Assembly: GCF_058153355.1 (NCBI RefSeq)
Contig: NZ_CM177019.1
Strand: one strand, 5' to 3'
Length of the DNA stretch: 64,000 nucleotides
In this document: piece by piece, positions 4,286 through 48,343 of the stretch
Layout of the letters: each line of letters opens with the position of its first letter
Position numbering within the stretch: the stretch's first letter is position 1
The notes under the pieces: generated by a model
What the model was told of the DNA's origin: nothing
Seen by the model: the letters and a program-made list of their open reading frames with translations, nothing else
Database searches by the model: none
Made by a program: the position numbers and the translations under genes

Positions 4286-4542
4286 TGTTCTTCCACCTTA
4301 CTTTTATTTCGTCGTTAATTACCGGGCAAGTGTTAAGCACCACTGCTGACACTTACTTGTGCTACAAATGACAAAAAGCGTAGCAGCAGACCTGCTCGGC
4401 ATAATGTAAAGATTCCAAATGATTCCAGTAATGGATTGTTATTGTTTAATATTCTAATTATTTGAAAAACATGAATTGTGAAAAATGTGACGCAGATCCC
4501 TTGTGGTGGCACTCAGAATCCCTTCCGAGCAGTCTGATGCGG

Positions 4543-4743
<201 letters not shown>

Positions 4744-4783
4744 TTATTTCACGGGATGAACGTTAAGTATAGGCGCTCGAAAA

Positions 4784-5308
4784 TCAACAATTGATCGTCT
4801 GTGCCAGGGCGCTGCGAATTTCAGAAATCACCTGGCTGGGTTCGTTTGTTGCGTCGATGATAATATGCGCAACTTCGCGATATAGCGCATCGCGTTCTTC
4901 CAGCACTTCCTGAACTTCTTCGCTCAGCGGTTTCCCCGTTAAGGTTGGCCGTAAATCTTCTTCCGGTGCAGCTTGCAGTCGGTTAACCAGGACTGATACT
5001 GGCGCACACAAATAAACCACGATCCCGTTATTTTGCATAAAGTGACGATTAAATTCCGTCAGGATAATGCCGCCGCCCGTGGCGATAACGGTGGATGGCG
5101 CAGTTACCGCTTCCAACGCCGCCGTTTCTCTGGCGCGGAATCCCGCCCACTCTTCCCTTTCGACGATCTCCGCGACCGTCATATTGAGCTGTGATTGCAA
5201 CCACTGGTCGGTATCGACAAACCGACGGTTAAGTGAATCGGCAAGGGCCATTCCGACCGTTGTTTTACCACAGCCCCGAGGCCCGATCAGAAAAAGAGGT
5301 TGTGTCAT
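4784..5308 (-). CDS. aroL: Shikimate kinase II
   Basis: 174-aa ORF with P-loop GPRGCGKTT, recognised AroL. Confidence 0.95.
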
Positions 5309-5490: not shown

Positions 5491-5949
5491 TCAGCCACGA
5501 CTACGTTGCACTTCCAGCCACCACTTCTCCAGCTCCGCGGCAAAGGCCTGGCGGTCACGTTGTGAAAGGCTATCTGGTCCCCCGGTCTGGATCCCACTGG
5601 CGCGTAAGGTATCCATAAAATCGCGCATCGTCAGGCGCTCACGAATGGTCGCTGGTGTGTAACGTTCGCCGCGTGGATTAAGCGCCGCAGCGCCTTTCTC
5701 GATGGCTTCAGCAGCCAAAGGAATATCTGCGGTGATCACCAAATCGCCCGCTTCACACTGCCGGACAATTTCGTTATCGGCAACGTCGAAACCTGCCGCG
5801 ACGCGCAGCGTTCGAATAAATCGCGAAGGTGGTACGCGTAAACTCTGGTTTGCTACCAGTACCAGCGGCATCTGCATACGTTCAGCCGCGCGATACAAAA
5901 TCTCTTTAATTACATTGGGACACGCGTCGGCATCCACCCAAATTGTCAT
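5491..5949 (-). CDS. yaiI: UPF0178 protein YaiI
   Basis: ORF 5491..6069; 152-aa product from internal Met [16 protein letters not shown]... matches YaiI. Confidence 0.85.
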
Positions 5950-6894: not shown

Positions 6895-8010
6895 TCAGGC
6901 CGCCACTTCGGTGCGGTTACGTCCGGCTTTCTTTGCTTTGTAGAGCGCCAAATCTGCCGATTTCAACCACTCCCGATAGTGACTCATTTGTGGATTCAGC
7001 GGCGCGACACCCACACTAATCCGTAACATCACCTGCGGTGTATTCGGCAAACGTAACGTATTTAGCCCTTCATGTACCCGTAACATGGCGGTAATGGCGC
7101 TCTCAGCTGGCGTACCGGACATGATCACCGCAAACTCATCGCCACCAAACCGACCAATCACATCGCTACCGCGCAGGGTAATTTGTAATTGTCGGGTAAG
7201 CGCCACAATCGCTTCATCGCCCACATCATGGCCCCAGGTATCGTTGATGCTCTTGAAATGGTCGATATCGATAATCAGTAACGTCGCATCGCGGTTATGC
7301 CGCCGACAGTTATCAAATTCATTGCGTAACATAGTTTCCCAATGACGTCGGTTATACACGCCCGTCATACCGTCGCGGGTACTCATGACCTGCAACCTGC
7401 GTTTATGTTCCGCCAGTTTAGTCGCCGTCTGGTAGCTGACCCAGCCAAACAGCATAGGATAAATGACGATAATGGGAAGGGAGAGCCACCATTCCAGCGG
7501 CGCACTATTGAACGACACGGTGATACCCGTCAGTTCGAGGGTGACAAGGCAGGAAACCACCATCAACACCAGACCCGCGACAAACAGACGGGGGCCGCCT
7601 GCCCCCATCAAATTCAGACACATAATCATCAACATCGCGGTGGAAGGCAGCACGTTTACGCCCATTACGCCTACCCACATTCCCGCTAATACTGCATCGG
7701 TTTTTAAGTTATAAATTTCCCGGCTAAGCGGATCGACAGCCCTACTCGCAATCTGCCAGGCTAAATGCGGCCAGACGAACGCCCAGCCGACCAACACCAG
7801 CCACCACCAGCCCGGCGGCGGGTGCGAAACCAGCGTTGAAGCAATCGGTAAGAACATGCCAGCCAGGCCAACCGCGCGGGGTAGTCTGACGCGACGGGCG
7901 AAGCGCAGCCCGGACCGCTGATGTTCGTTTTGAGGAGTTAAAGGAGGTTCCTCCCCATGCGCCGCCGCTTTTTTGAAAAAGTTTTCATCATTCATTATTT
8001 TTGGGAACAT
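6895..8010 (-). CDS. dgcC: Diguanylate cyclase DgcC (AdrA/YaiC), membrane MASE2 + GGDEF
   Basis: 371-aa ORF with hydrophobic N-terminal half and RFGGDEFAV GGDEF motif. Confidence 0.9.
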   Translation of the reverse strand: MFPKIMNDENFFKKAAAHGEEPPLTPQNEHQRSGLRFARRVRLPRAVGLAGMFLPIASTLVSHPPPGWWWLVLVGWAFVWPHLAWQIASRAVDPLSREIYNLKTDAVLAGMWVGVMGVNVLPSTAMLMIMCLNLMGAGGPRLFVAGLVLMVVSCLVTLELTGITVSFNSAPLEWWLSLPIIVIYPMLFGWVSYQTATKLAEHKRRLQVMSTRDGMTGVYNRRHWETMLRNEFDNCRRHNRDATLLIIDIDHFKSINDTWGHDVGDEAIVALTRQLQITLRGSDVIGRFGGDEFAVIMSGTPAESAITAMLRVHEGLNTLRLPNTPQVMLRISVGVAPLNPQMSHYREWLKSADLALYKAKKAGRNRTEVAA

Positions 8011-17449: not shown

Positions 17450-20338
<2,889 letters not shown>

Positions 20339-28811: not shown

Positions 28812-30023
28812 TCAGGCATCGGCGCACGGCTGCATTCGTGATCTCCGGCTCATCAAAATAAACACTGCCAGGCCAGCAACAAAAATACCCGGCGCTGAAG
28901 CGGCCATTACGCCAACCGTGCCAGTACCTAATGCCAGCATTTTCCCGGCCAGTAACGGACCGCTCATAGCCCCCAGACGCCCTACCGCCACGGCGGTTCC
29001 CACGCCGGTTGCGCGGATCTGCGAACTGTAAAACAACGGAGCCAATGCATACAAAACGCTTTGCCCACCTGTTGCAAACAACCCTGCGACGAATCCCGCC
29101 AGCAACATACCGTTAAATGATGACACCGTTCCCAGCGCTAACAGCGAAGCTAACATACCGCTATAAATCAGTAGCGACATGATCATTGGACGCAGTTTAT
29201 CCATCAAGGCGCCCAATATTAACGTCCCGCTTGCCGCCCCCATTTGTAGTGCAAACATCACCCCTGCCGCCTGCGATGGCTGGAATCCTTGTTCCACTAA
29301 AAGCAGCGGTAGCCAGTTGATCAACATGTAGACCACCAGCAAAGTGAAGAAATAACACAACCACAGCAGCAGCGTTGCGGTTGCCGTGTTGGGCGCAAAT
29401 AACGCACGCAGCGGCGGCGCAGCCTGTTTTTCGCCAGCGAACACCGCCGACTCCGGCAGCCAGCGCATTAACAGTGGCACCAGAATCAACGGCACCACAC
29501 CACCTACCCAAAACACCGTTTGCCAGGCTAAGTTTGCCCCTGCAAAACCCAGTGTCGCCGCCAGCGCCGCGCCAATGGGAACCCCGCAATACATCAGGCT
29601 CACCGCCGTTCCACGAAAACGTGGCCCCGCCGCTTCAGACGTCAGGGCGATAAGATTCGGCAACGCCGCCCCCAGCCCGACACCGGTCATCAGCCGCGCA
29701 AAGACCAGTGAGGGGAAATCCCAGGCAATAGCCGTTGCCAGCGAGAACAAACCAAACAGCGCAACTGAACCAATCAAAATGCGTTTACGACCATAACGGT
29801 CCGCCAGCATTCCGCCAACCAGCGCGCCGGGTAGCAAACCGAGTATTCCGGCACTGAATATCCAGCCCATTTGCATTTTATCGAGTGCAAAAGCCTGGGC
29901 GATGCCACCCGCCGCAATGCCAGCCGCCTGAAGATCCAGTCCTTCCATCAGAGCGACCAAAAAACAAAGCCCGACGGTCAGCATCAGGCGGGATGAAGAT
30001 GATGAAGGGGTACGAGTCGACAT
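28812..30023 (-). CDS. mhpT: 3-(3-hydroxyphenyl)propionate transporter (MFS)
   Basis: ORF 28812..30092; 403-aa product from MSTRTPSSSSSRLMLTVGLCFLV...; 12-TM MFS pattern. Confidence 0.9.
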   Translation of the reverse strand: MSTRTPSSSSSRLMLTVGLCFLVALMEGLDLQAAGIAAGGIAQAFALDKMQMGWIFSAGILGLLPGALVGGMLADRYGRKRILIGSVALFGLFSLATAIAWDFPSLVFARLMTGVGLGAALPNLIALTSEAAGPRFRGTAVSLMYCGVPIGAALAATLGFAGANLAWQTVFWVGGVVPLILVPLLMRWLPESAVFAGEKQAAPPLRALFAPNTATATLLLWLCYFFTLLVVYMLINWLPLLLVEQGFQPSQAAGVMFALQMGAASGTLILGALMDKLRPMIMSLLIYSGMLASLLALGTVSSFNGMLLAGFVAGLFATGGQSVLYALAPLFYSSQIRATGVGTAVAVGRLGAMSGPLLAGKMLALGTGTVGVMAASAPGIFVAGLAVFILMSRRSRMQPCADA

Positions 30024-30100
30024 AAGATGAACCTCGTTGCGAATGCAGGTGAATCGCGGCTGATACATTGCCAGCCGCGTAATCAAAACCATTTAATGAC

Positions 30101-30400
<300 letters not shown>

Positions 30401-30432
30401 GGATGGGTATACAAAATGCACGTTGTCAGCAG

Positions 30433-31448
30433 TCAACATGATTTGTTGTTGCACAGATCCAGCGCCACGTCGACGATCATATCCTCCTGGCCGCCGACCA
30501 TCCGGCGTTTACCCAGCTCAACGAGAATATCCACCGCGCTTAAACCATAACGCGCCGCCGCCGTTTCACAGTGACGCAAAAAGCTTGAGTAAACACCAGC
30601 GTATCCCAGCGCCAGCGTTTCGCGGTCGACACGTACCGGACGATCCTGCAACGGACGCACCAGGTCGTCAGCGGCATCCATTAACGCATAGAGATCGGTC
30701 CCATGCTGCCAGCCCAGTTTATCCGCGGCGGCAATAAACACTTCCAGCGGTGCGTTACCTGCACCCGCGCCCATCCCCGCGAGGCTAGCGTCGATGCGGT
30801 CACAGCCCTCTTCCACCGCCGCGATAGAGTTCGCCACACCAAGACTCAGGTTATGGTGAGCATGCATGCCAGTTTGCGTTTCCGGTTTGAGCACCGCTTT
30901 CAGGGCGCGGAAACGGTCACGGATATCGCTCATGTTCATCGCACCGCCAGAATCCACCACATAAATACAGGTCGCACCGTAGCCTTCCATCAGCTTTGCC
31001 TGTTTTGCGAGATTCTCTGGCGTGGTCATGTGGCTCATCATCAGAAAGCCAACGGTATCCATTCCGAGTTCGCGGGCATACTGAATATGCTGAGCGGAAA
31101 CATCAGCTTCGGTGCAGTGCGTAGCCACACGAACCACCCGCGCGCCAGCCTGCCAGGCATTTTTCAAATCGTGAATAGTGCCAATTCCTGGCAGCAATAA
31201 CGTCGCGATTTTGGCGTGCTTTACCACATCCGCCGCTGCTTCAATCCATTCAAGGTCGCTATGCGCACCGAAACCATAGTTAAAGCTGGAACCCTGCAAA
31301 CCATCGCCATGGGCCACTTCAATCGAATCCACGCGGGCATCATCCAGTGCTTTGGCAATCTGGCGGACATTTTCAAGTGAATACTGATGACGAATGGCGT
31401 GCATACCGTCACGCAACGTGACGTCCGAGATATAAAGTTTTTTACCGT

Positions 31449-31452
<4 letters not shown>
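30433..31452 (-). CDS. mhpE: 4-hydroxy-2-oxovalerate aldolase
   Basis: 339-aa [28 protein letters not shown]... Confidence 0.95.
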
Positions 31453-33214
<1,762 letters not shown>

Positions 33215-34081
33215 TTAAGCACGTGCGAGGAAATTCAGCACCAGTTGATTGAAAGCGTCGGCATGTTCCCACTGCGCCCAGTGACCACAGTCGCGAAAGA
33301 TATGCAGTTCAGAACCGGCGATGCCAGAAAGCAGACGCAGCCCTGCGTCCATCGGCACAAAACGGTCGTTACGCCCCCAGACAATCAGAGTTTGCGCTTT
33401 GATTTCCGCCAGACGTGGACCAAAATCCGGGAACTGTTTCGGATTGGCTTCCAGGCTCTTAACGAAGTTTTCCAGGTGATCGCGGCGCGACAGCATATTA
33501 TTCAGGCGCGCTTCAAACAGGACGTCGGTCAAATCGCTGGTATCGAAAACGAAGATATCCATCATCAGCTTCAGATTTTCGATAGTCGGCTGGCGATAAA
33601 GCTGATTCAGTCGCTTAATGCCTTCAGTTGGCATCGGCGTAAACAAACTCATGCCACCTGTACCGCCGCCCATCAGCACCAGTTTGCCGACGCGCTCCGG
33701 CCAGTTAAGGGTGAACGCCACAGAACTGTGGCCGCCCATCGAGTTGCCCAGCAGGTGGATTTTGGCGATATCCAGTTGATCCACCACACTTTTCAGGATG
33801 CGCGCATTGAGATCCGATCGCGAACCACTGTTAACAATCGAATCGCTCTTACCCCAACCAGGACAATCCAGCAGGATCACCCGATAACCAGCTTCTACCA
33901 GCGGATCGATATTGCGGCTGAAGTTCGCCCAGCCCGTAGCCCCCGGGCCGGAGCCGTGCAGCAGGACAACGGTTTCGTCGCCTTGACCGCAGTCATTAAA
34001 ATGGATGCGCAGCGTTTTACCCGCTTCTTCTACATTCAGAAAACGGCTGGTGGCGGCTTCGGTTTGTGGCTGATAACTCAT
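33215..34081 (-). CDS. mhpC: 2-hydroxy-6-oxononadienedioate hydrolase (alpha/beta hydrolase)
   Basis: ORF 33215..34144; 288-aa product from [22 protein letters not shown]... with GNSMGG nucleophile elbow. Confidence 0.9.
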
Positions 34082-34098
34082 CATCTTCTCCTGCATAT

Positions 34099-35043
34099 TC
34101 AGTTCTCTGTTCTGGCGCTTAACGAGCCAAATCCGGCAATCCACTCCGGGATCGGGCGGTAATAACGCCCTTCGCTACGCCAGTTGCCAAACGCAGAAAT
34201 AGCGGCAAAAGCAGCGACCCAGGTTTTGATTTCATGTGTCGACTTTCCTGCAATGGCGGAAAGCTCTTCGTTACTGACGGCATCCAGTTCCTGTATGCGT
34301 CCCTGCTCCAGCAAAGACATGAACTGGTTATCCCAAATCGGGTTGAGCGGATGCAGAGTTCTCTGATCCTCAACAAACCTCTCAGCGGCGCTAATCACCC
34401 GTTGCTGGCGCATTTCGCGCTCATTGGCGGGCAAATCTTTCCCGCTACCCAACAGACGATCGCGCATATGGGCATCCGCTTTCGCCAGTTCTGGCACCGG
34501 CGGCTGATGGGAAAGCCCACCGGAACCCAGGAACAGCACGCGCTTATTCAGCGTACTGGTGAAACGTCCAATGGCTTCACCCAACATGCGGGTACGCTGA
34601 AAACCAGGTAGCGGCGTGGCGACACCGTTGATGAATACAGGCAGGACCGGCACCTTATCCAGCCCGCCGAGCAGGAACTCCAGCGGCTGGGCAAAACCGT
34701 GATCCACCTGCATACAGTAAGAAACGGCAAGATCTATCCCACTCTTCATGACGGCATGCGCACAAGCCTCCGCCAACTCCACAGGCACAGGAAGCTCTCC
34801 TGCCGCACTGCCGAAATCGCCAATTGCCGTCGCCCCAACGCCTAAACAGAAGGGTGGCATCACGTCATAGAAAAAACCGTTGTAATGATCTGGCGCAAAC
34901 AGCACCACCAGTTCAGGGGAGAAGGCCGCAATACGCTCGCGGGCACTGGCAATCACGCCATTGACCTCATCGAGTATCTCTTGCGCCGGGTCGACATACC
35001 CTACCAGCGGCGAGTGGGAAAGACAGTGAAGATAAGCGTGCAT
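34099..35043 (-). CDS. mhpB: 3-(2,3-dihydroxyphenyl)propionate 1,2-dioxygenase (extradiol)
   Basis: 314-aa [25 protein letters not shown]... Confidence 0.95.
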
Positions 35044-35044
35044 A

Positions 35045-36709
35045 TCAGGCTACCTTTTCGACAGAAACGTCGACATCAGGGCGGTTGAGTGTCATCACGG
35101 ACGCCAGTTTATTCAGCGTATTACCCAGAGTTTGCGGAATGGCGATGGCGGCAACAAAGCGATCCGGGCGCATCACCACCAGCGAAGCATTATGTTGTGC
35201 GAACCAGCTACGCAGGCGACCTTGCGTATCACCCACGCGCAGCACGCCGTCGTAGTTATCCTGCACGGTATGAATTTGCACATCCGGCACCACCTGAATG
35301 AAGCGAGTACCCAGCGCGCGCCATTGCTGGATTTGCTCATCGCTCATCCCCCACAGTGGATTGCATCCCCAGCCAATTACCGCGAAGTTCGCGCCGATCG
35401 CGTTATCGAGCAACGTCACGTCGCAGTTTTCCAGCGTAACTTTCGGCTGAATAAACATCTTGCCGACCGGAGAGTGTTTCGCTTCGCCTTCACGCACCAG
35501 CGCACCGGCGTAATATTGCGGCATCGGCTTGAAGCGCATTTCGAGGAAGTAGCGTTTTACTGGCGGCAGATAATTCAGCAGCCAGGAAACACCGTCACGT
35601 AACGTACCCTGCCAGCGTTTCGGCGGAGCCAGTACGTTGCCCGCCGTCACCGACAGATTAATCATCGCTTTGGCGTGATCGCGACGTTCTTGTTGATAGG
35701 TATCGAGCAGCGCATCGCGAGCTTTCCCCTGGATAACCAACGCCAGTTTCCAGGCGAGGTTAAAGGCGTCGCGCATACCACTGTTATAGCCCTGCCCCTG
35801 CCACACCGGCATAATATGCGCGGCATCGCCCGCCAGCAGTACGCGGTCAATACGAAAACGTTGTGCCAGTCGCGCGTTGTGGGTGTAAACACGCTGACGA
35901 ATCAATTCGACGTTGTCCGGATTAGGCAGCACTTTGCTTAACAGCTTGCGCATATTTTGCGGCTCGCGGAGCTGTTCTTCGGTTTCGCCCGGCATCACCA
36001 TAAATTCAAAGCGACGTACCGCATGAGGCAGAGCCGCAGAAACATACGGGCGCACCGGATCGCAACACAAATAGATATGCGGCGTACTTAACGGATCGTT
36101 GGCGATATCCACCACAATCCACTGATTTGGTGCGGTTTTACCTTCAAACGGCACATTCAGGGTGCGCCGGACAAAACTTGCTCCACCGTCACAGGCTACC
36201 AGCCACTGGGCTTTGACCGTTTCCCGCTGCCCTTCTGCCGTTTTCAGATACAAGGTCACTTCGTCATCTTGCTGGCTGAAGGCCTCCAGCTCGCGGGAAA
36301 ACAGGCAGCGCACATTCGGAAACCGCGACAACCCTTCCAGCATCACCGCATCGACCTGCGGCTGAATAAAGGCGTTACGACGCGGCCAGCCAAATTCATC
36401 GGTCATTGGCTGAATATCAGCAAAACAGCGGCCTTTTGGGGTAAGAAAACGCATCGCATGCCACGGCGTAGTGTGCGGCAGAACATTATCGACAAGGTCA
36501 ACCGACTGCATGGTGCGCAGCGCCTCGTCATCAATTCCAATCGCGCGTGGATAGTCGATCAACTTATCGAGTTTCTCCACCACCAGCACGTCAATGCCCA
36601 TCTGGCCGAGATAGTTCGCCATCATCAGCCCGACCGGACCGGCACCAGCGATCGCCACCTGAACGCAATGGTTAACAGCAGGCTGGATGTCAGGGTGTTG
36701 TATTGCCAT
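35045..36709 (-). CDS. mhpA: 3-(3-hydroxyphenyl)propionate hydroxylase (FAD monooxygenase)
   Basis: 554-aa ORF with FAD-binding [17 protein letters not shown] motif. Confidence 0.95.
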
Positions 36710-36850
36710 TTCAGTACCTCACGACTCGGACAAAATGCCGTTGCGCGCACAGTTCAACGCAACTTATTTTGTTAAAAACATGTAAATGATTTTTTATTGT
36801 GCGCTCAGTATAGGAAGGGTGTTTTCGGCTACAATCAAAACATGCCTGAG

Positions 36851-36867
36851 TGTGCACCAGGTGCACA
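36851..36867. promoter_or_regulatory. MhpR operator palindrome in the mhpR-mhpA divergent promoter region
   Basis: tgtgcaccaggtgcaca (TGCACC-N-GGTGCA inverted repeat) between mhpA and mhpR starts. Confidence 0.6.
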
Positions 36868-36899
36868 ACGTTGTTTTAACTATAGAAATGTCAATTAAT

Positions 36900-37733
36900 A
36901 TGCAGAAAGATGAGCAGGCGGAATACAAAACCGTGCGCGGCTTAACCCGCGGTATAATGTTACTAAATATGTTAAATAAACTCGATGGCGGTGCCAGCGT
37001 CGGGCTGCTGGCGGAGCTCAGCGGCCTGCATCGAACTACTGTGCGGCGACTGCTGGAAACGCTGCAGGAAGAGGGATATGTCCGGCGCAGTACCTCCGAT
37101 GACAGTTTTCGTCTGACCATCAAAGTGCGGCAATTAAGCGAAGGATTTCGTGACGAACAATGGATTTCTGCACTGGCAGCCCCGCTGCTGGGCGATCTGT
37201 TGCGCGAAGTGGTATGGCCGACAGATGTGTCCACGCTGGATGTTGATGCAATGGTGGTACGCGAAACCACCCACCGTTTCAGCCGTTTATCTTTTCACCG
37301 GGCAATGGTCGGACGGCGTTTACCGCTCCTGAAAACCGCCTCGGGCCTGACCTGGCTGGCCTTTTGCCCGGAACAAGAACGCAAGGAGTTAATCGAAATG
37401 TTAGCCGCCCGTCCCGGTGATGACTATCAGCTGGCACGGGAGCCGTTAAAGCTGGAAGCCATTCTGGCGCGCGCACGCAAAGAGGGTTACGGACAGAACT
37501 ACCGTGGCTGGGATCAGGAAGAGAAGATCGCCTCCATTGCCGTGCCCCTACGCAGTGAACAACGGGTGATTGGCTGTCTGAATCTGGTGTATATGGCAAG
37601 CGCAATGACCATCGAACAGGCAGCGGAAAAGCATCTTCCGGCGCTACAACGGGTAGCAAAACAGATCGAAGAAGGGGTTGAATCGCAGGCTATTCTGGTG
37701 GCCGGACGGCGAAGCGGCGTGCATTTACGCTAG
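36900..37733 (+). CDS. mhpR: IclR-family activator of the mhp operon
   Basis: ORF 36786..37733; 277-aa product from MQKDEQAEYKTVRGLTRGIMLLNMLNKLDGG... Confidence 0.9.
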   Translation: MQKDEQAEYKTVRGLTRGIMLLNMLNKLDGGASVGLLAELSGLHRTTVRRLLETLQEEGYVRRSTSDDSFRLTIKVRQLSEGFRDEQWISALAAPLLGDLLREVVWPTDVSTLDVDAMVVRETTHRFSRLSFHRAMVGRRLPLLKTASGLTWLAFCPEQERKELIEMLAARPGDDYQLAREPLKLEAILARARKEGYGQNYRGWDQEEKIASIAVPLRSEQRVIGCLNLVYMASAMTIEQAAEKHLPALQRVAKQIEEGVESQAILVAGRRSGVHLR

Positions 37734-37835
37734 TTGCGCCAATGTGTAATTTGGCCCATTCTCATCGTTATTCGCCCATTTGCCCACATGCACAGTACGG
37801 GCTGCACGCTACGCTAATGCCATCAATACTGTGAT

Positions 37836-38624
37836 GTGGAGCAAATCATGAAAATTACTCAAATTCGTAATGCCACCCAAATTATCCAATACGCTGGCAA
37901 AACATTTCTTATTGACCCGTTACTCGCGCCTAAAGGAAGTTATCCGGGTTTTGCCGGAACGGCACGCGCAGAAATCCGCAATCCAACGGTAGAATTACCG
38001 TGCGATTTAACAACGTTACTCAACGTTGACGCCCTAATAGTGACCCATTTGCATGAAGATCACTGGGACGAAACAGCCTCCCGCGTCGTCCCCAAAGATA
38101 AACAGATTTATGTGCAAAATGAGCAAGATGCTGAATCACTGCATAAACAAGGATTTACGCATCTTACCGTACTTGCCGACGAGACTAAATTTGGCGATAT
38201 TACTCTGCATAAAACGACAGGGCAGCACGGCTCCGATCGCACCTATGCAGACCCGGCTATGGCGAAGCGTTTAGGCGCAGCCTGCGGCGTTGTTTTCCAG
38301 CACCCGACAGAGAAAACGCTCTATCTGGCTGGCGATACCCTCTGGCGTGATGACGTCGAGGCTACAATGCTAACTTTCCAACCAGAAGTGGTGGTGTTGA
38401 ATGCCGGATTTGCGCATGTTCTGGGGCATGGCGCGATAATTATGGGAGCTGAAGATATTCTCAAAACACATTTCACCCTGCCAGAAGCGCAAATTGTCGC
38501 GACACATATGGAGGCCGTAAACCACTGTTTGCTGACGCGTGATGCTCTCAAGGAATACGCCAGAGATAATCAAATTATCGAATTTGTGAACGTACCAGAA
38601 GATGGTGAAACGTTGACATTCTAA
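37836..38624 (+). CDS. Metallo-beta-lactamase-fold hydrolase (accessory, function unknown)
   Basis: 262-aa ORF with THLHEDHWD (HxHxDH) zinc-binding motif; lies between mhpR and lacI. Confidence 0.7.
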   Translation: MEQIMKITQIRNATQIIQYAGKTFLIDPLLAPKGSYPGFAGTARAEIRNPTVELPCDLTTLLNVDALIVTHLHEDHWDETASRVVPKDKQIYVQNEQDAESLHKQGFTHLTVLADETKFGDITLHKTTGQHGSDRTYADPAMAKRLGAACGVVFQHPTEKTLYLAGDTLWRDDVEATMLTFQPEVVVLNAGFAHVLGHGAIIMGAEDILKTHFTLPEAQIVATHMEAVNHCLLTRDALKEYARDNQIIEFVNVPEDGETLTF

Positions 38625-38643
38625 TTCGGAGATAAAGAGTGTT

Positions 38644-39597
38644 ATGCGCCCGCTAACTGTTGCCATTATCGCCGTTGCCGGTTTTAGTCCTTTTCACCTT
38701 TCCGTACCGTTTATCGTGTTTAGCGAAAAAATGGCGGAGAAAAAACGCTTTCATGTAATTATCTGCGCTGAAAAGCCGGGAAATGTGGACTCTGCCGATG
38801 GGTTTTCCGTAACCGCCACCCATGACTATACGGCAGTCATCCAGGCGGATATTGTGATAATTCCTTACTGGGGAACAATTACACAAAAACCGCCACAAAA
38901 ACTGCTGGAAGCCTTAACGACCGCACGAGATAACGGGGCACAGATTGTCGGGCTTTGCCTGGGCACGTTTGTGCTCGGCTATGCAGGTTTACTGAACAAT
39001 AAGCGTGCTGCCACGCACTGGGAGTTCGAGCGTGAATTTCAGGCACGTTTTCCACAAACACATCTGGATATTAACGCGTTGTATGTAGACGATGATGGCA
39101 TTATTACCTCTGCCGGTACTGCCGCGGCGCTGGATTGCTGTTTGTATATTGTTCGGCAACATTTTGGCAGCGACTATGCTAACCATATTGCCCGACGGAT
39201 GGTCGTACCGCCATATCGCACCGGCGGTCAGGCGCAGTTTATAGAGCAACCGGTGCCGAAAAATACCCATGATGAACGCATTAACCTCCTGCTGGATTAC
39301 CTGCGGCAAAACATTACGCAACAGCATGATCTCGACTCGCTGGCTCAGCAAGTAATGATGAGTCGCCGCACACTAACCCGTCATTTTATGAAAGCGACCG
39401 GTTCGAGTATCGCCGAATGGCTCATCACTGAACGCTTACGCCGTAGCCAGGAACTGTTGGGATCCAGTCAGTTGCCCGTTGAGCGGATAGCGGCTGAGGT
39501 GGGTTTTCTCTCACCTGTGACCTGGCGTCAGCATTTTAAATCTCACTTCGGCGTCAGCCCCGCAGAATGGCGCAAAACCTTTCGTGGTATGGCATGA
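38644..39597 (+). CDS. GlxA-family transcriptional regulator (DJ-1/PfpI-like N-domain + AraC-type HTH)
   Basis: 317-aa ORF; N-terminal GLCLGTFVLG nucleophile-elbow-like region, C-terminal AraC HTH (RRTLTRHFMKATGSSIAEWLITERLRRSQELL...); 19 bp after the MBL gene. Confidence 0.7.
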   Translation: MRPLTVAIIAVAGFSPFHLSVPFIVFSEKMAEKKRFHVIICAEKPGNVDSADGFSVTATHDYTAVIQADIVIIPYWGTITQKPPQKLLEALTTARDNGAQIVGLCLGTFVLGYAGLLNNKRAATHWEFEREFQARFPQTHLDINALYVDDDGIITSAGTAAALDCCLYIVRQHFGSDYANHIARRMVVPPYRTGGQAQFIEQPVPKNTHDERINLLLDYLRQNITQQHDLDSLAQQVMMSRRTLTRHFMKATGSSIAEWLITERLRRSQELLGSSQLPVERIAAEVGFLSPVTWRQHFKSHFGVSPAEWRKTFRGMA

Positions 39598-39633
39598 TAG
39601 CGCCCGGAAGAAAGTCAATTCAGGGTGGTGAAT

Positions 39634-40708
39634 GTGAAACCAGTAACGCTATACGATGTCGCGGAGTATGCCGGTGTCTCTTATCAGACCGTTTCCCGCG
39701 TGGTGAATCAGGCCAGCCACGTTTCAGCGAAAACGCGGGAAAAAGTGGAAGCGGCGATGGCGGAGCTAAATTACATTCCCAACCGCGTAGCACAACAGTT
39801 AGCGGGCAAACAGTCGTTGCTGATTGGCGTTGCCACCTCCAGTCTGGCCCTGCACGCACCGTCGCAAATTGTCGCGGCGATTAAATCTCGCGCCGATCAA
39901 CTGGGTGCCAGCGTGGTGGTGTCTATGGTAGAAAGAAGCGGTGTCGAAGCCTGTAAAGCGGCAGTACACAATCTTCTCGCGCAACGCGTAAGTGGTCTGA
40001 TCATCAACTATCCGCTGGATGACCAGGATGCCATTGCTGTGGAGGCAGCCTGCGCTAATGTTCCGGCGCTATTTCTTGATGTCTCTGACCAGACTCCCAT
40101 CAACAGTATTATTTTTTCCCATGAAGACGGTACGCGGCTGGGCGTAGAGCATTTGGTCGCATTGGGTCACCAGCAAATCGCGCTGTTAGCGGGCCCATTT
40201 AGTTCTGTCTCGGCGCGTCTGCGTCTGGCGGGCTGGCATAAATATCTTAAACACAATCAAATTCAACCGATAGCGGAACGGGAAGGCGACTGGAGCGCCA
40301 TGTCCGGTTTTCATCAAACCATGCAGATGCTGAATGAGGGCATCATTCCTACCGCGATGCTGGTTGCCAACGATCAGATGGCGCTGGGTGCAATGCGCGC
40401 CATTACCGAGTTCGGGCTGCGCGTCGGCGCGGATATCTCGGTAGTGGGATACGACGATACCGAAGACAGCTCGTGTTATATCCCGCCATTAACGACCATC
40501 AAACAGGATTTTCGCCTGCTTGGGCAAACCAGCGTGGACCGCTTGCTGCAACTCTCTCAGGGCCAGGCAGTGAAGGGTAATCAGCTGTTGCCCGTCTCAC
40601 TGGTGAAACGAAAAACCACCCTGCCACCCAATACGCAAACCGCTTCTCCCCAGGCGTTGGCTGATTCCTTAATGCAGCTGGCGCGACAAATTTCCCGACT
40701 GGAAAGCG

Positions 40709-40716
<8 letters not shown>
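39634..40716 (+). CDS. lacI: Lactose operon repressor (GTG start)
   Basis: ORF 39625..40716; 360-aa product from (V)KPVTLYDVAEYAGVSYQTVSRVVNQ...; ~3% residue differences from K-12 LacI as I recall it. Confidence 0.95.
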
Positions 40717-43911
<3,195 letters not shown>

Positions 43912-43917
43912 TAATAA

Positions 43918-45216
<1,299 letters not shown>

Positions 45217-45225
45217 GCAATCAAT

Positions 45226-45255
45226 GTCGGATGCGGCGCGAGCGCCTTATCCGAC
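45226..45255. repeat. REP element between lacY and lacA
   Basis: gtcggatgcggcgcgagcgccttatccgac. Confidence 0.7.
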
Positions 45256-45281
45256 CAACATATCAGGACGGAATGATCAAA

Positions 45282-45893
45282 ATGAACATGTCGATGACAG
45301 AAAGAATAAAAGCAGGAAAGCTATTTACCGATATGTGCGAAGGCTTACCTGAAAAAAGACTTCGTGGGAAAACATTAATGTATGAGTTTAATCACTCGCA
45401 TCCAGCGGAAGTTGAAAAAAGAGAAAGCCTGATAAAAAAAATGTTTGCCACGGTAGGGGAAAACGCCTGGGTTGAACCACCTGTCTATTTCTCTTACGGC
45501 TCCAACATCCATATAGGCCGCAATTTTTATGCAAATTTCAATTTAACCATTGTCGATGATTACACGGTAACGATCGGTGATAACGTACTGGTTGCCCCCA
45601 ACGTTACCATTTCCGTTACGGGACACCCTGTACACCATGAGTTAAGAAAAAACGGAGAGATGTACTCTTTTGCGATAACGATTGGTAATAACGTCTGGAT
45701 CGGCAGCCATGTGGTCATTAATCCAGGCGTCACCATCGGGGATAATTCTGTTATTGGCGCGGGAAGTGTCGTCACAAAAGACATTCCACCAAACGTCGTA
45801 GCTGCTGGCATTCCTTGTCGGGTTATTCGCGAAATAAACGACCGGGATAAGCAATATTATTTCAAAGATTTTAAAGTTGAATCGTCAGTTTAA
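45282..45893 (+). CDS. lacA: Galactoside O-acetyltransferase
   Basis: ORF 45231..45893; 203-aa product from MNMSMTERIKAGKLFTDMCEGLPEKRL... with hexapeptide repeats. Confidence 0.9.
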   Translation: MNMSMTERIKAGKLFTDMCEGLPEKRLRGKTLMYEFNHSHPAEVEKRESLIKKMFATVGENAWVEPPVYFSYGSNIHIGRNFYANFNLTIVDDYTVTIGDNVLVAPNVTISVTGHPVHHELRKNGEMYSFAITIGNNVWIGSHVVINPGVTIGDNSVIGAGSVVTKDIPPNVVAAGIPCRVIREINDRDKQYYFKDFKVESSV

Positions 45894-45904
45894 ATAAGCA
45901 AAAT

Positions 45905-45967
45905 TGCCTGATGCGCTCCGCTTATCAGGCCTATAAGTTCAGTGATCTACGCAGGCCGCATCCGGCG
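45905..45967. repeat. REP pair between convergent lacA and cynX
   Basis: gcctgatgcgctccgcttatcaggcctat ... gccgcatccggcg. Confidence 0.6.
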
Positions 45968-45995
45968 TAAACAAAGCGCAGGAACGAGCGTCGCA

Positions 45996-47150
45996 TCATG
46001 CCTCTTTGACCCACAGCTGCGGAAAACGTGCTGGTGCAAAACGCAGGGTTATGATCATCAGCCCAACGACGCACAGCGCATGAAACGCCCAGTCCATCAG
46101 GTAATTGCCACTGATACTACGCAGCACACCAGAAAACCACGGAGCAAGCCCGGCAATGATAAAACCGATCCCCTGCATAAACGCCACCAGTTTGCCAGCA
46201 ATAGCGGGTTGCGCAGAGTGATCGAGCGCCAGCAGCAAACAGAGCGGAAATGCGCCACCCAGACCTAACCCACACACCATTGCCCACAATACCGGCAATT
46301 GCAGCGGCAGCCAGATAAAGCCGCAGAAACCCACCAGTTGTAACGCCAGTGCCAGCATTAATAGTTTGCGCCGATCCTGATGGCGAGCCATAGCAGGCAT
46401 CAGCAATGCCCCTGCGGCTTGACCAAGCGTCATCAACGCCAGCAAGGAACCGCTGTACTGCGTGCTGGCACCGATCTCAATATAGAAGGCGGGTAACCAG
46501 GCAATCAGACTGGCGTAACCGCCGTTAATCAGACCGAAGTAAATACCCAGCGTCCAGGCGCGGGGAGTGAAGACTACGCGAACCGGAGTGGTTGTTGTCT
46601 TGTGGGAAGAGACGACCTCGCGGGAGCTTTGCCACCACCAGGCAAAGAGCGCAATAATGGCAGGCAGCGCCCACCAGGCGAGAGTCTGGAACCAAATCTC
46701 GCTGTGTTGAACTAACCTGGGCGTCAGGGCGGCACCAAGTCCACCGCCGCCCATCAGAGCCGCAGACCACAGCCCCATCACCAGTGGCGTGCGCTGCTGA
46801 AACCGCCGTTTAATCACCGAAGGCATCACCGCCTGAATGATGCCGATCCCCACTCCACCGAGCAGTGCGCTGCTAAGTAGCAGCACACTTTGAGGGTAAA
46901 GCTCTCGCATCAATGCGCCGACGGCTATCAGCAACAAACTGATGGCGACGCTGCGACGTTCGCTGACATGCTGATGAAGCCAGCTTCCGACCAGCGCCAG
47001 CCCGCCCATGGTGACCACCGGCAGAGCCGTCAACAGGGCAGCCACGCTAAAGCTCATTCCGCTCGCCTGGCGCAATTGCGGTAGCAGTGGCCCGACGGAG
47101 GTGAGCAGTGGTCGCATATTAAGACCAATCAGCACCAGAACCAGCAGCAT
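45996..47150 (-). CDS. cynX: Cyanate transporter (MFS)
   Basis: ORF 45996..47177; 384-aa product from MLLVLVLIGLNMRPLLTSVGPLLPQLRQ... Confidence 0.85.
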   Translation of the reverse strand: MLLVLVLIGLNMRPLLTSVGPLLPQLRQASGMSFSVAALLTALPVVTMGGLALVGSWLHQHVSERRSVAISLLLIAVGALMRELYPQSVLLLSSALLGGVGIGIIQAVMPSVIKRRFQQRTPLVMGLWSAALMGGGGLGAALTPRLVQHSEIWFQTLAWWALPAIIALFAWWWQSSREVVSSHKTTTTPVRVVFTPRAWTLGIYFGLINGGYASLIAWLPAFYIEIGASTQYSGSLLALMTLGQAAGALLMPAMARHQDRRKLLMLALALQLVGFCGFIWLPLQLPVLWAMVCGLGLGGAFPLCLLLALDHSAQPAIAGKLVAFMQGIGFIIAGLAPWFSGVLRSISGNYLMDWAFHALCVVGLMIITLRFAPARFPQLWVKEA

Positions 47151-47683: not shown

Positions 47684-48343
47684 TTACGCTGCGGTCGGCT
47701 GGCGTAGCGGTATGGCACAAACGCAAGGATTAGCTGCCAGTGGAACAAACTGGCGGGTTGCGCCGTCAAAGGCTGCGATACTGCCGCTTTCAATGTCGTA
47801 GACCCAGCCGTGCAGGGCGATCCGCCCCTCTTCGAGCGCCAGGCGCACCGATGGATGAGTTTGCAAATTAGCCAACTGAGCAATGACGTTTTCACGTACC
47901 ATCGCCGCAGCTTTTGACGCTAAATCGGAATGCGGGCGCGCCTCATTAACGACGCGAGCTGAATCGGCATAACGCAGCCAGTGGGAAACAGCAGGCATAT
48001 GGTCCATGCACTGACAGCTGGCAATGGCAGTCATCGCGCCACAGTTGGAATGACCGCAAATCACAATGTCAGATACCCGAAGCGCAGCGACGGCATACTC
48101 CACCGAAGCAGAAACGCCACCAGGTTCCGGTCCGTAGGAAGGGACGATATTGCCCGCGTTGCGAATCACGAACAAATCGCCAGGTTCGCGTTGCGTCACC
48201 AGCTCAGGGACCAGACGGCTGTCGGAGCAGGAGATAAAAAGTGTGCGCGGGCTTTGCTGTGTCGCCAGCTGTTTAAACAAGGCTTCCCGCTCAGGAAATG
48301 CCTCGCGCTGGAATTTAAGGAATCCATCAATAATCTCTTTCAC
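47684..48343 (-). CDS. cynT: Carbonic anhydrase (beta class)
   Basis: 219-aa [20 protein letters not shown]... with CSDSR and HSNCGA zinc-ligand motifs. Confidence 0.95.

Follow-up and report, generated by a model that had tools for sequence, protein, structure and literature searches.

The stretch of DNA analysed here, called the window throughout, comprises 64,000 nucleotides of contig NZ_CM177019.1 (NCBI RefSeq assembly GCF_058153355.1), and the locus of interest lies between mhpR and lacI, where two genes encode a metallo-β-lactamase (MBL) fold hydrolase and a GlxA-family transcriptional regulator, OvrA. The left flank is mhpR (36900..37733, + strand), whose 834 nt are co-linear with the RefSeq mhpR of EDL933 and K-12 and end with the stop codon TAG at 37731-37733; the right flank is lacI (39634..40716, +), co-linear with RefSeq lacI from its GTG start at 39634. 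The list of open reading frames (ORFs) confirms 37836..38624 (+) and 38644..39597 (+) between these flanks, two same-strand genes spaced by 19 bp, as described in an earlier interpretation made from the letters alone (the sequence-only reading). The hydrolase gene itself, a saxA-like gene orthologous to z0443 of enterohaemorrhagic Escherichia coli (EHEC), occupies 37848..38624 (+). We place its start at ATG 37848 and not at GTG 37836, because a GGAG lies 6 nt upstream, the orthologues all begin with MK/NIT, and RefSeq annotates 777 nt. The predicted product, a putative SaxA-family isothiocyanate hydrolase of MBL fold, therefore has 258 residues instead of the 262 first proposed, and the THLHEDHWD (HxHxDH) motif noted at the same time is indeed present. 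The second gene, ovrA, orthologous to z0442, occupies 38644..39597 (+) and encodes a GlxA-family regulator of 317 residues with a DJ-1/PfpI sensor domain and an AraC double helix-turn-helix (HTH).

In K-12 MG1655, lacI (366428-367510) adjoins mhpR (367587-368420) with 76 bp between them, in agreement with the sequence-only reading, which called the two immediate neighbours. Homology to K-12 ends at the mhpR stop codon and restarts at 39565. Alignment to this junction, suggested by the sequence-only reading as a way to find the boundaries, delimits a segment of 1831 bp (37734..39564, +) that is absent from K-12, where the filler CACCATC is found instead. The two genes are not present at this position in K-12, which keeps only a 33-nt remnant of ovrA. 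The GC content of the segment, which corresponds to O-island 19, is 0.45-0.51, compared to 0.55-0.57 in the flanks. The sequence-only reading suggested looking for a divergent promoter in the spacer between mhpR and the hydrolase gene; mhpR, the hydrolase gene, ovrA, and lacI are all on the + strand, which rules it out for 37734-37847.

The hydrolase matches Pfam Lactamase_B_2 (E-value 2e-11, 44.3 bits for a cut-off of 27), and its score with Lactamase_B (PF00753) is 19.3 bits, below the cut-off of 22.7. Among solved structures, its nearest matches are SaxA and 3RPC instead of β-lactamases: a sequence search of the PDB returned 6BRM, the "metal-dependent isothiocyanate hydrolase SaxA", with an E-value of 2.8e-87, and 3RPC with 1.8e-72. 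The alignment with SaxA (6BRM) covers 258/259 residues with 54% identity and one single-residue gap, and the residues H67, H69, D71, H72, H127, D163, and H220, corresponding to the HxHxDH motif and the downstream metal ligands, are invariant in 11 family members including 6BRM. The dN/dS ratio (non-synonymous over synonymous substitution rates) of the gene relative to EDL933 is 0.088, indicating strong purifying selection. Judged by homology, the most likely product of the first gene is a Zn-dependent SaxA-family hydrolase, which would convert isothiocyanates into an amine and carbonyl sulfide (COS), the reaction of SaxA being R-N=C=S -> R-NH2 + COS (PMC7036374).

The strongest of the alternative explanations retains a regulated hydrolase module and assigns it a substrate other than an isothiocyanate, e.g. 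a lactone, another electrophile, or a metabolite, the similarity to SaxA then reflecting family membership only. Several observations are compatible with it: the identity to the characterised enzymes is only 53-54%, family members carry names such as 'UlaG-like' or 'metal-dependent hydrolase' in some sources, no function is annotated for PDB 3RPC, E. coli and Citrobacter live in the gut and are not plant pathogens, and SaxB and efflux genes are absent from the window locus. Nevertheless, we regard this explanation as rather unlikely, given the end-to-end homology to SaxA with its single one-residue gap, the conservation of all the metal ligands, and the fact that dietary crucifers bring isothiocyanates to the gut. 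In addition, Pectobacterium SaxA (6BRM) and Pseudomonas hydrolases found in the published saxC-saxA-saxB order, putative orthologues of the assayed P. syringae SaxA, span an equal sequence distance, being 51-53% identical to one another and each equally distant from the window hydrolase. Finally, SaxA activity is reported for all five phylogenetic clusters of the family, which are stated to preserve the catalytic properties even in members that do not come from plant pathogens, and the family is widely distributed in Enterobacterales (PMC7036374).

In OvrA, Pfam identifies DJ-1_PfpI at residues 6-171 (5.2e-12) and HTH_18 at residues 233-311 (2.7e-19 for HTH_18/HTH_AraC), in agreement with the DJ-1/PfpI N-terminal domain and AraC HTH C-terminal domain first proposed, and the protein also matches the DNA-binding domain of AdpA (E-value 1.4e-22). 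Its best NCBIfam model is FtrA (NF006902), with 323.3 bits for a cut-off of 425, followed by GbdR, with 127 bits for a cut-off of 480. Being below both equivalog cut-offs, OvrA is neither FtrA nor GbdR. The best solved-structure match to the sensor domain is the isonitrile hydratase InhA (E-value 4e-13), whose catalytic nucleophile, a cysteine, aligns with C105 of OvrA. The residues C105, H125, W126, and C165 are invariant in 78 OvrA-type regulators, and the dN/dS ratio of ovrA relative to EDL933, 0.037, indicates strong purifying selection.

The association between the two genes extends to other genera. We scanned species-representative genomes and considered the best 80 of at least 600 matching stretches, among which there is no Escherichia, so that the scan is silent on the presence of the pair in other Escherichia species. 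An OvrA-type regulator lies beside the hydrolase gene in 69 of these 80 loci. An OvrA homologue with 51-81% identity is found immediately downstream on the same strand in 57 loci, the regulator is divergently upstream in 11 loci (Pseudomonas, Stutzerimonas, and relatives), and it is one gene away in a single locus; the hydrolase-then-regulator order is also that of Yersinia, Klebsiella, and Citrobacter. Six of the 11 divergent loci have a SaxB-like gene too, which corresponds to the published saxC-saxA-saxB layout, and saxC is listed as a transcriptional regulator of the sax genes in Pseudomonas (PMC12903958). Among the best 80 loci and the Pectobacterium-type SaxA locus, SaxB is found only in Pectobacterium-, Erwinia-, and Pseudomonas-type loci. 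The locus of the crystallised SaxA (6BRM) shows the order MFS, isochorismatase (SaxB-like), LysE, SaxA, DJ-1/PfpI-AraC regulator, resolvase, and Tn3 transposase, and the regulator directly downstream of SaxA is 57% identical to OvrA over its full length. We also observe that this Pectobacterium-type cassette, adjoining the resolvase and the Tn3-family transposase, occurs on many contigs, which points to a mobile sax module distinct from the chromosomal one of E. coli and Citrobacter.

An alignment of the sequences preceding the hydrolase gene in E. coli, Citrobacter, Klebsiella, Yersinia, and Pectobacterium served as a phylogenetic footprint across genera and revealed a motif with the consensus TTGRCCCRATnnCATCG-n6-GnCC. 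The motif contains a direct repeat, TTGRCC / TTGnCC, with 21 bp between repeats, a spacing as expected for an AraC-type dimer. In the window it corresponds to TTGGCCCATTCTCATCGTTATTCGCCCATTTGCCCACAT at 37751..37789 (+), the only match without mismatch in the 64 kb, which we propose as a candidate operator that the cognate regulator, OvrA, would bind. Within 200 nt upstream of the gene, at least 12 of 17 motif positions are matched in 55 of 62 loci with a downstream regulator and in 8 of 291 control windows, and at least 14 of 17 positions in 43 of the 62 loci and in none of the 291 controls. About 20 nt downstream of the candidate operator lies a candidate -10 element, TACGCT, preceded by C (37810..37815, +), which aligns with TACGAT, TATGAT, or TATAAT of Klebsiella, C. 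rodentium, and Yersinia. Since a consensus σ70 scan of 37600-39750 gave no promoter on the + strand, this candidate -10 is based on the cross-genus alignment only; a terminator scan of the same interval found none between mhpR, the pair, and lacI, at or below the shuffle expectation. The context of the candidate -10, GCTACGCTAAT, resembles the σS -10 consensus. This resemblance is in line with the RpoS dependence of Z0443, which is expressed in EDL933 with a 10-fold dependence on RpoS (PMC2907692).

The locus is already known as O-island 19 of EHEC O157:H7, of which OvrA is a characterised activator of the locus of enterocyte effacement (LEE). The window segment and O-island 19 of EDL933 have the same neighbours and are 97.7% identical in nucleotide sequence, with 97.8% for z0443 and 97.3% for z0442/ovrA, and counts of non-synonymous differences indicate an amino-acid identity of approximately 98-99% for the proteins. 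RefSeq labels the products "MBL fold metallo-hydrolase" and either "GlxA family transcriptional regulator" or "ovrA: OI-19-encoded virulence regulator OvrA", the gene name ovrA being used on loci 99.7% identical to the window. According to the passages of PMC8565820 and PMC10877973 that summarise Liu et al. (J Infect Dis 2020), O-island 19 has 1834 bp and contains z0442 (ovrA) and z0443, the latter with a function described there as "unknown"; the site bound by OvrA in the LEE1 promoter is GACATTTAATGATAATG, and OvrA activates ler as well as promoting adherence and colonisation. This published site occurs once in the EDL933 LEE, at the reported position (47966-47982 of the 50-kb LEE stretch), where it overlaps the TTGACA -35 element of the LEE1 promoter. 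We also looked for the published site in the window and found only two matches with three mismatches, at 18634 and 41214, far from the locus, which we consider uninformative. With O-island 19 known since the comparison of the O157:H7 and K-12 genomes and OvrA already characterised, the finding is therefore not a discovery. In the searchable literature, no paper links z0443 or O-island 19 to SaxA, and the SaxA reading of z0443, with the related regulator beside SaxA, the recurrent pairing, and the upstream motif, is absent from it, as are the ancestral status of the segment and the purifying selection on both genes.

The sequence-only reading described the pair as inserted between mhpR and lacI. 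Megablast detects it in 435 of 5426 complete E. coli genomes, always between these two genes, and the K-12-type junction with its 33-nt remnant in 4458 genomes. This remnant, GAATGGCGCAAAACCTTTCGTGGTATGGCATGA (39565..39597, +), corresponds to the last 10 codons and the stop codon of ovrA (EWRKTFRGMA*). A query limited to the island matched 922 genomes, the full island being present in 435 of them and no more than its last 65-68 nt in the other 487. In these 487 complete genomes, which are of B2 type, the whole mhp cluster is missing and yaiL abuts an ovrA fragment directly upstream of lacI. The fragment is the 99-nt 3' end of ovrA (39499..39597, +), kept as a pseudogene: in ATCC 25922 and THO-006, the Prokaryotic Genome Annotation Pipeline (PGAP) labels the 99-nt stretch that separates yaiL from lacI "GlxA family transcriptional regulator, incomplete". 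The yaiL-fragment-lacI region of ATCC 25922 is found at 4395-5136 of its locus stretch. We found no trace-free empty site, the island-free genomes keeping 33-nt or 99-nt 3' fragments of ovrA.

The retained codons belong to ovrA, since EWRKTF is invariant in the orthologues of four genera, Citrobacter, Leclercia, Huaxiibacter, and Enterobacter, within an invariant C-terminus SPAEWRKTF. The lacI promoter also lies within approximately the last 30 nt of ovrA and overlaps its stop codon. The sequence of this region (39570..39598, +) is identical to that of K-12 PlacI, with the hexamers -35 GCGCAA (39570-39575) and -10 CATGAT (39593-39598), separated by 17 nt, as reportedly assigned by Calos (1978). 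The assignment agrees with a description of the region by its PvuI and NheI sites (PMC7049694). The 33-nt and 99-nt remnants thus indicate two different truncation points, both of which preserve the lacI promoter.

Outside Escherichia, the order hydrolase-regulator-(0 or 1 gene)-lacI-lacZ-lacY is found in C. freundii, C. rodentium, and 9 further Citrobacter species, and in C. rodentium the elements of the lacI promoter likewise lie inside the 3' end of the regulator gene. We also observe a methyltransferase gene on the opposite strand between the regulator and lacI in several other Citrobacter (6961-7569 of the C. freundii locus stretch), and, in C. youngae, an insert of approximately 130 bp at the same place (5741-5890 of its locus stretch) ending in a second copy resembling the lacI promoter (ATGCGCAAA...CATCAT). 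Because of the Citrobacter gene order, the invariant SPAEWRKTF, and the two lengths of ovrA remnants, we interpret the K-12 state as a deletion. The segment is most likely ancestral and not inserted, and the simplest reading is that an ancestral block was lost at least twice.

The ends of the K-12-missing segment are marked by a 13-nt inverted repeat with 85% complementarity, 37734-37746 (TTGCGCCAATGTG) and 39563-39575 (CAGAATGGCGCAA), located exactly at its boundaries, the right arm overlapping the lacI -35 element. Seven pairs of similar quality, this one included, occur in 2.3 kb, and in EDL933 the repeat is weaker, with an additional mismatch in the left arm, so we set it aside as a clue to the mechanism. 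Microhomology, i.e. the CGT common to the end of mhpR and to ovrA, was not convincing as a cause of the K-12 deletion either. At the ends of the island there are no flanking direct repeats, the ORF list contains no integrase, transposase, or other mobility ORF, a tRNA scan of 30000-47000 found no tRNA, and an Rfam scan of the region was likewise empty.

A second alternative to the detoxification module is that O-island 19 is a horizontally acquired, EHEC-specific island whose role is virulence regulation, with OvrA a dedicated LEE1/ler activator and z0443 an unrelated and unimportant passenger. The footprinted OvrA site in the EDL933 LEE1 promoter, present once and where it was reported, is in line with this, as is the conservation of O-island 19 in all the O157:H7 strains surveyed in the literature. 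We nevertheless find this explanation improbable. The same pair, with the same tight linkage between hydrolase and regulator genes and a conserved upstream motif, is found in Citrobacter, Klebsiella, Enterobacter, Yersinia, Pectobacterium, Aeromonas, and Marinomonas, and most of these genera are not known to have the LEE. That K-12 and B2 strains keep remnants of ovrA speaks against an acquisition by O157, and the locus has no mobility signatures. Given the pair outside LEE carriers, the remnants, and the lack of mobility signatures, we would rather regard LEE activation as a lineage-specific output of secondary rank. The two explanations are not mutually exclusive.

The weakest alternative is that mhpR beside lacI is the ancestral state and that the pair was inserted into this junction in some lineages; it could draw on the small fraction of E. 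coli genomes with the pair, the GC content of the island, somewhat below that of the flanks, an island dS roughly half the value in the flanks, a sign that recombination has moved the segment laterally between Escherichia lineages, and the imperfect inverted repeat exactly at both ends, but it is very improbable in view of the in-frame 33-nt and 99-nt ovrA fragments in island-free genomes, the family-invariant EWRKTF that the retained codons encode, the hydrolase-regulator-lacI order common to C. rodentium and other Citrobacter with the lacI promoter inside the tail of the regulator gene in C. rodentium too, the absence of integrase, tRNA, or direct repeats, and the weaker inverted repeat of EDL933.

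Taken together, homology, synteny, the phylogenetic footprint, and the conservation of selection support the following mechanism, in which we infer the isothiocyanate hydrolase activity, the control of the hydrolase gene by OvrA, and the nature of the effector. We consider it likely that the two-gene operon is an isothiocyanate detoxification module of the saxA/saxC type, an old neighbour of lacI that was lost from most E. coli. The Zn-dependent SaxA-family hydrolase would convert isothiocyanates into amine and COS, and the ovrA product would be the cognate GlxA-family regulator of the hydrolase gene. OvrA would bind the direct-repeat operator at 37751-37789, directly beside the -35 region of the promoter of the hydrolase gene, and may sense the electrophile or a derivative via its DJ-1/PfpI domain, in which the nucleophile-elbow cysteine C105 is kept. 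In the Escherichia/Citrobacter lineage, the module would long have stood to the left of lacI, and most E. coli would have lost it by at least two independent deletions with right ends just short of the lacI promoter. In LEE-positive strains, OvrA would additionally activate LEE1/ler, an activation known from published work that we see as a secondary output.

As a tentative extension, OvrA might be a thiol-based sensor of dietary isothiocyanates that natively switches on a SaxA-type hydrolase and that, in LEE-positive strains, couples crucifer electrophiles in the gut to the expression of type III secretion genes. The lacI promoter would in this case be a fossil of the 3' end of ovrA, and the constraint that sets where the K-12-type and B2-type deletions end. 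We consider this extension possible, with clearly less confidence than the module itself.

Several points weigh against the detoxification module as described above. At 54% identity to SaxA, the substrate of the hydrolase could differ. In Pseudomonas, saxC is not induced by isothiocyanate and saxA is induced only weakly (PMC12903958). According to the same passages of PMC8565820 and PMC10877973, deletion of z0443 gave no virulence phenotype, and they report no isothiocyanate phenotype. The SaxB and efflux partners were not found at the window locus, where the pair is flanked only by mhpR and lacI. Furthermore, the published AT-rich LEE1 site, GACATTTAATGATAATG, is unlike the GC-rich motif found upstream of SaxA-family genes, and the latter is absent from the 50-kb LEE stretch of EDL933, so either OvrA has two very different types of site or one of the assignments is wrong. 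Finally, between the window and EDL933, the dS is 0.076 and 0.111 in the island and 0.18-0.19 in mhpA, mhpR, and lacI. In 37650-39650, each 200 bp contains about 4 mismatches to EDL933 inside the island and about 10 outside it, the transitions lying within approximately 100 bp of the island ends. With a dS half that of the flanks, the segment has also been exchanged between Escherichia lineages by homologous recombination, with a common ancestor younger than that of the flanks, and simple vertical descent followed by loss is thus not the whole story.

The source of the window bears on this history. Over the first 20 kb, complete E. coli genomes match it at only 94.3-95.7% identity, apart from one genome that reaches 97.6%. 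By contrast, a small set of E. coli matches the mhp-lac segment at 98.9% and the mhp-lac-cyn-prp part (30000-64000) at 98-99%. To judge from these identities, the window probably comes from a cryptic Escherichia lineage, and the E. coli strains with a 98-99% match may carry an introgressed segment. The window lineage, diverged by approximately 5% from E. coli, has the full arrangement. Downstream of lacI, lacZ (ATG 40839) shows a 2-bp deletion after 41018 (41018/41019, GGCAA--TGCC) relative to EDL933 and the closest E. coli genome, which splits the gene into ORFs of 79 and 968 residues. A single other public assembly encodes an identical OvrA protein, and it too has a 968-residue lacZ call, indicating that the deletion is probably real. 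The strain is probably Lac-negative, as predicted from this split.

The finding is real, but the locus had already been described, and it is the reinterpretation that is useful. As a whole, the sequence-only reading is partly supported. The polarity of its "insertion" is probably the reverse of the real one, and its small regulated detoxification module is supported and sharpened, as the module can now be named as a SaxA-family homologue with a SaxC/GlxA-type regulator. The O-island 19 gene z0443 thereby gains a specific and cheaply testable candidate function, isothiocyanate hydrolase, and OvrA gains a plausible native target and ligand class. If this is true, a diet-derived antimicrobial would be linked to the regulation of EHEC virulence. 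More generally, what is called an "O-island" can be ancestral sequence that K-12 has lost and not a pathogen gain, which alters the interpretation of such islands, and the classical context of the lacI promoter would be explained as the kept tail of a deleted gene.

Compared to known systems, the hydrolase differs from the MBLs of antibiotic resistance, as it fails the gathering score of Lactamase_B (PF00753), and the window segment differs from a horizontally inserted genomic island in having no mobility signatures (tRNA target, integrase or transposase, flanking direct repeats). OvrA shares with the GlxA-family regulators GbdR and FtrA the two-domain architecture of DJ-1/PfpI and AraC HTH, but its gene is linked to a SaxA gene and not to choline or carnitine catabolism genes. 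InhA, a DJ-1 superfamily enzyme that acts on an electrophilic carbon, has the nucleophile-elbow cysteine that is kept and aligned in OvrA, but OvrA is a transcription factor with a DNA-binding domain, for which no catalytic role is implied, and the resemblance only hints at how an electrophile might be recognised. With the sax genes of P. syringae and the SaxA of Pectobacterium, the locus has in common a full-length MBL-fold hydrolase (53-54% identity, identical metal ligands) and an adjacent DJ-1/PfpI-AraC regulator, 57% (Pectobacterium locus) or 44-45% (Pseudomonas-type loci) identical to OvrA. It differs from them by the absence of SaxB (isochorismatase), MFS/LysE, and RND efflux partners, by its chromosomal position beside lac, whereas the Pectobacterium-type cassette is on a Tn3-type mobile element, and by its host, which is enteric and not a plant pathogen. 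O-island 19 of EDL933 shows the same chromosomal position between mhpR and lacI, the same two genes, and the same size, in a genome from which the lineage of the window, approximately 5% diverged from E. coli sensu stricto, is distinct. In the literature it is an acquired island with a z0443 of unknown function, whereas here the segment appears ancestral and z0443 appears as a SaxA homologue.

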